Below the pieces are notes generated by a model. That model had not been told where the DNA came from. It did not search any database and saw only the letters and a list, made by a program, of their open reading frames with translations. A stretch of DNA of 64,000 nucleotides from a virus: the IMG/VR virus record IMGVR_UViG_3300004463_000262, positions 1 through 64,000 of that record; one strand, 5' to 3'. The first letter of the stretch is position 1, and every line of letters starts with the position of its first letter. Made by a program: the position numbers and the translations under genes. Positions 17,660 through 18,239 of this stretch are shown here, piece after piece.

Positions 17660-17860
17660 ATGGCTAGATTGAGCAAGGTATATGTGGCTTTCTTCCACGA
17701 CAAGGGAAAGCGTTCTTTCGCGACAGAGAAGATTGCTGCCCGTAATTACGAAGCGGCTATGGAAGTGGCCGAGACATGGGCGATCAGCAAGTATCATGGT
17801 CGTGTAAAGGAAATCAAGATCGAGAAGTCCAAAGGAGAGATTCTACTTGGCGACGATTAA
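17660..17860 (+). CDS. Hypothetical protein
   Basis: AGGAAGGA RBS; overlaps the rpsL start. Confidence 0.65.
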
Positions 17861-18239
17861 TCAGTTGGTCAGAAAGGGCAGGAGCAAGCCGAAGCCGAAG
17901 AGCAAGGCACCGGCTCTGGACGCCAATCCGCAACTACGTGGAACCGTTGTCCGCACGATGGCTCTTGATCCGAAGAAGCCTAACTCTGCGAAGCGTCATT
18001 GTTGTCGCGTCAGGCTATCGAACGGCAAAGAAGTGAACGCATACGTCCCTGGTCGTGGGATGAACATCCAGGAGCATCACTCGGTGCTCATTCGTGGTGG
18101 TCGAGTCCCGGATCTACCTGGGGTTCGCTACAAGGTCATCCGAGGCACGATGGATTGCCAGGGTGTCTCCGATGAAGAGGGTAACGTTCCTCGCAGGCAG
18201 AGTCGTTCGAAGTACGGAGTGAAGAAGAACGTCAAATGA
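17847..18239 (+). CDS. rpsL: 30S ribosomal protein uS12 (divergent)
   Basis: [60 protein letters not shown] and TTG start. Confidence 0.95.

Follow-up and report, generated by a model that had tools for sequence, protein, structure and literature searches.

A conserved uS12 variant encoded by large phages and its possible place at the ribosomal decoding center

The ribosomal protein uS12 is located at the A-site decoding center and is a classical determinant of translational accuracy and of the response to aminoglycosides. We analyzed a 64,000-nucleotide stretch of DNA (referred to here as the window) that carries a gene for a variant uS12. The window corresponds to positions 1 to 64,000 of the IMG/VR virus record IMGVR_UViG_3300004463_000262, which is 72,439 bp long and for which CheckV estimates a completeness of 45%. 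Virus-encoded ribosomal proteins are known, and those named in the covered sections of three reports are bS21, bL12, bL9, bL31, bL33, bS6, uS9, uS15, S1, and S4 (PMC6375957, PMC7162821, PMC9723584), with S4, S1, S21, and L7/L12 given for phages in PMC7162821. According to the same sections, viruses favor ribosomal proteins that are loosely bound and exchangeable. The window resembles these cases in that a lone ribosomal protein gene lies in a bona fide phage genome, is under purifying selection, and accompanies tRNAs and a transfer-messenger RNA (tmRNA); it differs in that the protein is uS12, of the decoding center. We found no report of a phage-encoded uS12 in the literature covered, outside of which fall Supplementary Table 2 and Figure 2 of PMC6375957. 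The main text of that paper mentions S12 or uS12 nowhere, in five of its supplements S12 appears solely in mass-spectrometry tables, as the protein of E. coli itself, and S12 is unmentioned in the covered sections of two recent surveys of jumbo and huge phages. A core protein of the decoding center is thus not among the virus-encoded ribosomal proteins that we found described in these sources. At least one published jumbo-phage pipeline removes contigs with "ribosomal protein" genes as contamination (PMC13037316, section covered), and such a filter would systematically hide phages that carry uS12.

Much of what is known about individual uS12 residues comes from streptomycin alleles of bacterial rpsL. 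In the sections covered, K87R is reported to give a streptomycin minimum inhibitory concentration (MIC) above 1024 µg/ml at a small fitness cost in Klebsiella, while D88E, changes at P90, K43E, and P41L cause streptomycin dependence (PMC4182516). The dependence sites lie against helix 44 (h44) at the decoding site (PMC3884664), and D88 adjoins m7G527 (PMC7550191). Streptomycin sensitivity is dominant in mixed ribosome populations, which is the basis of rpsL counter-selection (PMC4182516). These phenotypes bear out a statement of the initial annotation of the window, that its uS12 is altered at sites of the streptomycin response. Like the streptomycin alleles, the phage protein is substituted at K87, and a relative on contig L002 is altered at K42 and P90 as well; the alleles are single host mutations, whereas the phage states are fixed across a lineage with many accompanying changes. 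Proline at K87 is not among the rpsL alleles in the covered parts of the literature found. Our data suggest that a working, phage-adapted uS12 would take the uS12 position at the decoding center of 30S subunits made during infection, a reading drawn from sequence comparison in which we place slightly more belief than doubt.

We found that the window holds a complete uS12 frame with its own putative ribosome-binding site, in agreement with the initial annotation:

17847 to 18239, + strand: uS12 (rpsL-like) gene, 130 amino acids, TTG start; open reading frame (ORF) as read, Pfam and TIGR matches, and alignments.
17832 to 17837, + strand: Shine-Dalgarno-like AAGGAG, 9 nt 5' of the uS12 TTG start; read from the sequence.

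The protein matches Pfam PF00164 with an E value of 5.6e-32 (110.2 bits against a cut-off of 22.3) and is the only match to this family in the 72,439-bp record. It also matches the NCBIfam equivalog TIGR00981 (rpsL_bact) at 173.5 bits against a cut-off of 112.95, over positions 1 to 122 of the 124 in the profile, and is 60% identical to the uS12 of Salmonella (locus L113). These data confirm that positions 17847 to 18239 are an intact bacterial-type uS12 gene. In an AlphaFold2 model built from a 20-row alignment, residues 11 to 100 form an oligonucleotide/oligosaccharide-binding (OB) core with pLDDT values of 75 to 90 and the tails are disordered (below 50). The top 50 Foldseek matches listed for this model are all uS12 chains of solved ribosomes (E 1e-13 to 1e-11, TM approximately 0.63), and the core is thus predicted to be an OB fold like that of solved uS12 chains. 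No PHROG family matched the protein at E 1e-5.

The gene is also a genuine phage gene, since it lies on a viral genome with hallmark genes. PHROG matches in the record include the terminase large subunit, portal, a DnaE-type polymerase, DnaB, primase, UvsX, RNase H, ribonucleotide reductase (RNR), ThyX, thymidine kinase, RtcB, and four HNH endonucleases. Bacterial uS12 is encoded in the rpsL-rpsG-fusA operon, a context that the Salmonella control locus L113 has and the window gene does not: tmRNA, tRNAs, and small ORFs surround it, tblastn found no uS7 in the window region, and neither uS7 nor elongation factor G (EF-G) was found in the record (tblastn with uS7; Pfam). The description of the gene as flanked by phage ORFs and not by rpsG or fusA was therefore correct.

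We then compared the protein with solved E. coli-type chains and with Salmonella uS12 (L113), using mature E. coli numbering. The residue-by-residue alignment reproduces each substitution read earlier from the sequence: RVKDLPG is RVPDLPG (K87 to Pro), VYTTTP is TMALDP (Y37-T38-T39-T40 to M-A-L-D), SALRKV is SAKRHC (L48-R49-K50-V51 to K-R-H-C), and an acidic insertion adds six residues, EEGNVP, between the GV-x-D turn and R109 in the C-terminal part. K42, PNSA, and D88 are retained, as had also been noted, along with K43, P44-N45-S46-A47, R49, R53, H76, R85, L89, P90, and G91. The decoding loop P41-A47 is intact, and the loop 87-91 keeps D88, L89, P90, and G91, but has proline in place of K87, a residue conserved in 89% of the 94 cellular clusters compared. 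Further changes are C33 to V, V32 and V36 to T, E69 to R, H71 to M, and L73 to I. The window protein therefore shares with bacterial uS12 the K42/K43 pair, the PNSA loop, H76, D88, P90-G91, and the N- and C-terminal segments that anchor the protein to rRNA, and departs from it at K87, at positions 37-40, at K50-V51 (H-C), and at H71, L73, and C33. Some changes are paired in phage uS12 (C33 to V with V51 to C; V32/V36 to T with T38 to V), which points to a fold that has been maintained.

We found that the window protein belongs to a clade of its own. In a word-index search, for which the best 120 of 7,999 scored proteins were listed, the window's own cluster is followed by about 20 metagenomic clusters at 64 to 77% identity; cellular uS12 among the matches listed are 61 to 67% identical (Persephonella, other Aquificota, Butyricimonas, and a Planctomycetes metagenome-assembled genome, MAG), and no single taxon stands out as donor. 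A 20-row alignment (A1) has an invariant proline at K87, together with invariant D88, K43, PNSA, R49, R53, E75-H76, G83-G84, and an R-S-x-Y-G tail. In window numbering, the invariant positions are R9, K10, G11, R12, P42, K44-P45-N46-S47-A48, R50, R54, E76, H77, G84, G85, D89, L90, G92, V93, Y95, R116, R120, S121, Y123, and G124. A profile search with A1 recovered 25 clusters at 212 to 247 bits, including that of the window, after which scores fall to 199 and then to a cellular plateau near 185. All 25 have proline at K87, and the clade carries a specific combination of M/F37-V38-x-N/D40, H/T50-C51, R/K69-G-M71-N/D-I73, P87, and K95. The strands beside K87 and the 69-78 loop are remodeled across the whole clade. 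The clade motifs occur together in none of 185,579 species representatives of GTDB; the initial annotation had asked about a host uS12 with the same residues, or one nearly identical to the phage protein, and the nearest cellular sequence among the matches listed is at most 67% identical.

The phylogeny that had been proposed as a check places the phage proteins, at least 25 protein clusters, in one clade. A quick IQ-TREE run used 78 rows and 131 columns, with a frameshifted sequence (L022) left out; the rows were drawn from the clade (22), from other viral contigs (3), from P87 sequences of metagenomes (20) and of genomes (6), and from the 94 cellular-type clusters (22), with a few intermediates added. 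The 22 clade rows and L004 form one side of a branch with an SH-aLRT (Shimodaira-Hasegawa-like approximate likelihood ratio test) value of 99 and a stem of 0.5 changes per site, and the P87 rows from Patescibacteria and from low-GC contigs are separate from them. No donor can be named because the few columns leave most other forks unresolved. Five P87-clade sequences (window, L002, L024, L025, and L027) compared by the Nei-Gojobori method gave pN of 0.20 to 0.29 and pS of 0.61 to 0.86, with dN/dS of 0.07 to 0.21 in the 7 of 10 pairs with finite dS, ratios that are rough because dS is saturated. These values indicate purifying selection on the phage uS12 and speak against relaxed selection, which had been named as a possible refutation. 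Mean pairwise identity is 0.69 within the clade versus 0.84 among the 94 cellular clusters, and of the 56 columns with 99% or higher conservation in those clusters, 37 persist in 90% or more of the clade. The phage copies evolve fast, yet under constraint, and the window uS12 is not a recent host capture.

The clade includes a complete phage. Contig L002 in IMG/VR (158,106 bp; CheckV 100%, complete) encodes a uS12 that is 66% identical to the window's and occupies the same slot, with orfX, orfY, and a sigma-like ORF in the same neighborhood; within 20 kb it has 45 tRNAs and a tmRNA whose order matches that of the window. The L002 protein carries K42C, R85I, and P90R. Five short metagenome contigs of the clade place uS12 near comparable genes: a tmRNA (L023), tRNA-Cys and tRNA-Leu(taa) (L025), tRNA-Cys and an HNH gene (L027), two tRNA-Leu (L028), and the end of an RNR gene (L024). 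We found rpsG on none of the five.

We next asked how widely a solitary uS12 occurs among viral contigs. Two pattern scans of IMG/VR recovered 14 contigs besides the window's record. A solitary variant uS12, defined as one that lacks TTTP, bears a C-terminal insertion, and has no uS7 in the flanking sequence retrieved, is present on nine contigs of 11 to 442 kb:

window record; L002, 158 kb; L003, 128 kb; L004, 117 kb; L008, 96 kb; L115, 11 kb; L116, 442 kb; L117, 193 kb; L124, 23 kb.

No uS7 was found by tblastn in L002, L003, L004, L008, L115, L116, L117, or L124. K87 is kept in L003, L008, L115, L116, L117, and L124, while L004 has proline and groups with the clade. A canonical uS12 followed by uS7 is present on L005, L007, L118, and L121 (the last with EF-G), and these four were taken as cellular flanks; on L118, the uS12-uS7 pair abuts the end of a Mu-like prophage and adjoins its portal and F genes. 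L006 and L126 end too early for a call on uS7 context. Further variant uS12 clusters lie on contigs of 87 to 101 kb (P0152, P0161, and P0177). Among four genomes of this set (G001 to G004), terminase matches were found in G001, G003, and G004 and none in G002, and tRNA counts are 47, 0, 1, and 0; the association of uS12 with a tRNA array is therefore specific to the window's lineage. A GenBank-derived phage collection gave 15 records that match uS12, each at 60% identity or less. One of these (H4, locus L113) is a 515-kb Salmonella chromosome contig with rpsL-rpsG-fusA-tufA, and the other 14 may be similar cellular material.

Other genes were noted near uS12 on two of the contigs with a solitary copy. 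L004 encodes, at 3730 to 8094 on the - strand and approximately 2 kb from uS12, a 1,455-amino-acid protein that combines Rpb2 domains 3 and 6 of RNA polymerase beta with Rpb1 domains 1 and 2 of beta-prime. The 193-kb viral contig L117 has a TnpB/Cas12f-like ORF at 568 to 1455 on the + strand (OrfB_IS605 and a Cas12f1-like TNB domain), which lies with an HNH endonuclease 1.5 to 3 kb 5' of uS12.

The initial annotation listed K87P and the acidic insertion among the features of the window protein; neither is specific to phages. We used the two peptide patterns that best distinguish the clade to scan one genome for each of the 185,579 GTDB species and obtained 18 stretches, 14 of them uS12, of which 13 have proline at K87. 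Their titles name Patescibacteria, Moraniibacteriota, Falkowbacteria, Saccharibacteria, and unclassified MAGs, and they are 47 to 54% identical to the window protein. All of these uS12 lack the clade's second motif and keep the canonical TTTPKKPNSALRK, mostly with an N-terminal insertion. The same patterns in metagenomes gave 133 uS12, of which 80 were kept; six loci fall in the clade, and the remainder are of the candidate phyla radiation (CPR) type or are 121-amino-acid forms on contigs of 21 to 31% GC, three of them with an in-frame TGA, which would fit organellar or code-4 genomes. The natural K87P proteins of CPR and low-GC (probably organellar) origin are like the window's in the motif GGR(T/V)PDLPGV(R/K)YK, but are only 47 to 59% identical to it overall and differ in keeping TTTPKKPNSALRK and GxGHNLQEH, and the CPR forms differ also in their N-terminal insertion. 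Since these sequences fall on the other side of the tree, the shared proline is convergent. K87P is a recurrent natural state that ribosomes tolerate, and it is no bar to membership in uS12 because proline is natural in CPR uS12 and K87 is found in only 89% of the cellular clusters. The C-terminal insertion is likewise common to Planctomycetes-like cellular uS12, being present in cellular-looking P0104 (NCBI name Planctomycetes), P0031, P0059, P0061, P0065, P0084, and P0109, and was probably inherited from the donor.

The window gene lies inside a module within a long tRNA array:

9264 to 25702, + strand: co-directional array of 44 tRNA genes with the uS12 module inside (ARAGORN, Rfam; same order in L002).
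16261 to 16779, + strand: sigma-70-like factor (region 2); same place in L002, where region 4 is detected.
About 17333 to 17640, + strand: one-piece tmRNA, predicted tag ending in ...PALVAA (ARAGORN; RF00023, 114.4 bits).
17660 to 17860, + strand: orfX, 66 amino acids, no known family; overlaps the uS12 start by 14 nt.
18236 to 18415, + strand: orfY, 59 amino acids, hydrophobic, with HKCYH...FW.G.T.GFP.EHL.W.K.WPFY; its ATG overlaps the uS12 stop (ATGA) by 4 nt.
26037 to 27416, + strand: RtcB tRNA-splicing/repair ligase (PHROG), at the end of the tRNA array.

ARAGORN predicts 44 tRNAs and one tmRNA, all on the + strand, and Rfam confirms the tmRNA, which lies approximately 200 nt 5' of uS12, and gives 43 tRNA matches. 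The overlaps with the upstream 66-amino-acid and downstream 59-amino-acid ORFs make uS12 resemble the middle gene of a small operon. Wherever upstream sequence exists (L002, L023, L024, and L027/L028), orfX lies directly 5' of uS12, while orfY is 3' of uS12 in L023 and L025 and 5' of it in L002. Logan contigs from two rhizosphere DNA runs, which may include the source sample, tile 15693 to 20850 without differences and bridge tmRNA-orfX-uS12 and uS12-orfY-tRNA-Cys. A consensus scan for promoters and terminators over 16000 to 19300 gave counts near the shuffled expectation and nothing convincing beside uS12.

The orfX product has no Pfam or PHROG match, and Foldseek returned nothing at E 0.001 or below. 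A word-index search found 3 proteins, and a profile search of 1.84 billion representatives gave 13 matches at E 0.001 or below, of which all but one are 62 to 79 amino acids long and unnamed. Its AlphaFold2 model (pLDDT 80.6) has a beta-beta-alpha-beta topology, for which the best VIA-align Z of 6.6 (PaaB and the eL20/LX N-terminal domain; T7 Gp2 5.4, AcrIE2 5.3) is under the tool's noise guide of 7 to 8, and Atlas scores do not exceed 0.86. A predicted complex of uS12 with orfX scored 0.00 (mark 0.32), which counts neither for nor against binding. For orfY, there was no Pfam match and the best Atlas score was 0.79. Besides RtcB in the window, Pfam matches in the complete relative set include an RNA ligase, a cREC_REC domain, a polynucleotide kinase (PNK)-like AAA_33 kinase, and NIF3, which together indicate phage investment in tRNA supply and repair.

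How might such a protein act? The phage uS12 would be expressed in infection, probably within the long co-directional tRNA/tmRNA transcription unit and with its translation probably coupled to that of orfX, and would enter, at the uS12 site, 30S subunits that are newly built or finished while infection proceeds. The segments by which uS12 is anchored in the 30S subunit and those that contact the A site are retained in the clade, whereas K87 has been replaced and the nearby strands and the 69-78 loop reshaped. We expect the protein to remain in the uS12 site because the N-terminal segment and the C-terminal R-x-x-x-R-S-x-Y-G, which hold to the 30S body, and both A-site loops are invariant; a generic RNA binder is unlikely because the PNSA and DLPG loops are not needed for RNA binding. 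Subunits with the phage protein would then differ in decoding kinetics or fidelity, in their streptomycin-type pocket, and possibly in their response to drugs and toxins. Given the literature on the K87, D88, P90, K43, and P41 sites, proline at 87 should alter this pocket, while the direction of its effect on fidelity is not predictable from sequence.

Several observations weigh against incorporation into 30S subunits. The ribosomal proteins exchangeable between ribosomes in the covered sections of PMC6375957 are bS21, bL12, bL9, bL31, and bL33; uS12 is not listed, and new 30S assembly would therefore be needed in infection. The phages carry no rRNA, and among the 228 ORFs of the complete relative G001 and the last 8.4 kb of the window's record (G000), the sole ribosomal protein by Pfam is uS12; initiation and elongation factors, aminoacyl-tRNA synthetases, SmpB, and RimO are absent from the same set at E 1e-6. 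Canonical decoding constraints appear loosened in at least one lineage, since K42C, R85I, and P90R of L002 fall at critical bacterial sites. Furthermore, 19 of the 56 ultra-conserved cellular columns are changed in the clade, a count made against 94 cellular clusters that are the top of a similarity-ranked list, mostly Bacteroidota- or Aquificota-like, and thus an unbalanced bacterial sample. Lastly, no RNA run is listed among the public runs with the stretch, and the four runs examined gave DNA contigs.

Two uses suggested in the initial annotation fare less well. Ribosomes tuned to phage tRNAs do not generalize as an explanation: the 117-kb L004 record, of the same clade, has one tRNA, and others of the solitary-uS12 phages (G002 and G004) have none. 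Aminoglycoside resistance is doubtful given the dominance of streptomycin sensitivity in mixed ribosomes (PMC4182516, section covered). A broader proposal, which we hold only tentatively and think improbable, is that a widespread group of large and huge phages (contigs of 11 to 442 kb) rebuilds the host decoding center with its own uS12, possibly delivered by orfX and placed in subunits made during infection, and so forms phage-specific ribosomes of changed accuracy or speed that are insensitive to agents of the uS12/h44/530-loop pocket. If this is so, the protein displaced by a virus would be a core ribosomal component that does not exchange between ribosomes.

An unlikely alternative, though the one that survives best, is that free phage uS12 acts off the ribosome as an RNA chaperone, either assisting the folding and processing of the 16-kb tRNA/tmRNA precursor or of further phage RNAs, or hastening the nucleation of host 30S assembly by aiding uS4 binding. 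E. coli S12 is reported, in the sections covered, as the strongest RNA chaperone among ribosomal proteins in splicing of the T4 td group I intron, and as speeding uS4 binding in co-transcriptional assembly (PMC3017892, PMC10931766). The position of the gene amid 44 tRNAs and a tmRNA and by tRNA-repair genes (RtcB; in the relative, RNA ligase, cREC_REC, and PNK-like kinase) fits this role, as do the three L002 substitutions, which suit a function outside the A site. However, we found no group I intron or other structured RNA besides tRNA and tmRNA at the Rfam gathering score in the window, solitary uS12 is also present in phages with zero or one tRNA, and the clade has invariant elements that general chaperoning can do without, namely H76, the loops PNSA and DLPG, and the anchoring segments at both termini.

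Still less probable, in our judgment, is that the variant shields ribosomes by blunting an A-site agent (an aminoglycoside-like soil compound, a ribosome-dependent mRNA-interferase toxin, or a host abortive-infection effector), or serves as a decoy that titrates a factor recognizing host uS12. The two DNA runs in which most of the stretch is found are labeled rhizosphere metagenomes, and aminoglycoside producers abound in this habitat. The invariant change falls at K87, where K87R alone gives the high streptomycin MIC cited above; the surrounding strands and the 69-78 loop are remodeled clade-wide, and in the tree K87P arose independently in several uS12 lineages. Partial replacement would nonetheless protect poorly because streptomycin sensitivity is dominant (PMC4182516, section covered), and no toxin, antitoxin, or defense gene was recognized beside uS12 by PHROG or Pfam. 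Unless it is an off-ribosome decoy, shielding would refine the use of phage uS12 in 30S subunits and not be a separate mechanism. Finally, a host rpsL captured by chance and drifting without function could account for the long branches, the 19 of 56 changed columns, and a gene GC of 55.6% (62% at third codon positions) above the window's 47%, but is very improbable, being contradicted by the intact frame in every copy seen, the dN/dS of 0.07 to 0.21, the same signature in at least 25 clusters, synteny kept at 66% protein identity, and a conserved, translationally coupled partner ORF beside uS12.

Apart from uS12, we noted several features of the array and of the relative. The predicted tmRNA tags of the window and of L002 (9055 to 9377) end in ...LVAA and not in the common ...LAA, and no SmpB was found in the complete relative (Pfam, E 1e-6). 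A stretch of approximately 49 nt at 19769 to 19817 (+ strand), just 3' of tRNA-Arg(tcg) and an HNH endonuclease ORF, matches positions 1096 to 1145 of bacterial large-subunit rRNA (RF02541) at 15.1 bits (E 0.027 in an 801-nt search), below the gathering score. This rRNA region is helix 43 of the L11-binding GTPase-associated center. High-depth cellular contigs align there in four metagenome runs, and an exact-pattern search of the other 113 loci, the entire sister phage G001 among them, did not recover the stretch. The match may reflect mimicry of rRNA, the remains of a homing-endonuclease target, or coincidence. At 22235 to 22310 (+ strand) lies a tRNA-like sequence (Rfam tRNA, 50.8 bits) to which ARAGORN assigns a four-letter anticodon, taag, and no amino acid; by eye its anticodon loop has 10 nt within a 5-bp stem, and the matching place in L002 holds tRNA-His with anticodon atg. 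It may be a frameshift-suppressor-like or a degenerate tRNA, noteworthy beside an altered uS12. Two more tRNA-like sequences, at 23613 to 23684 and 19568 to 19637 (+ strand), were found by Rfam (45.4 and 29.4 bits) and not by ARAGORN. The complete relative G001 also contains a single ORF of 4,717 amino acids (L106 4233 to 18383, equal to G001:C1:24233-38383) with no Pfam match at E 1e-6.

Our data suggest that some phages alter the core of the host translation machine and not just its periphery. Most phage ribosomal proteins reported to date are peripheral and exchangeable, in keeping with a picture in which host ribosomes are tweaked from the outside. The uS12 described here is conserved, is under selection, has a fixed change at K87 in its clade, and belongs to a family of solitary genes found in several large-phage lineages, with a partner ORF that is conserved in the window's lineage. 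This raises the questions of whether new 30S subunits are assembled within some infection cycles, whether translational fidelity can be changed by viruses, and which properties are common to the natural K87P ribosomes of phage, CPR, and organelle type.

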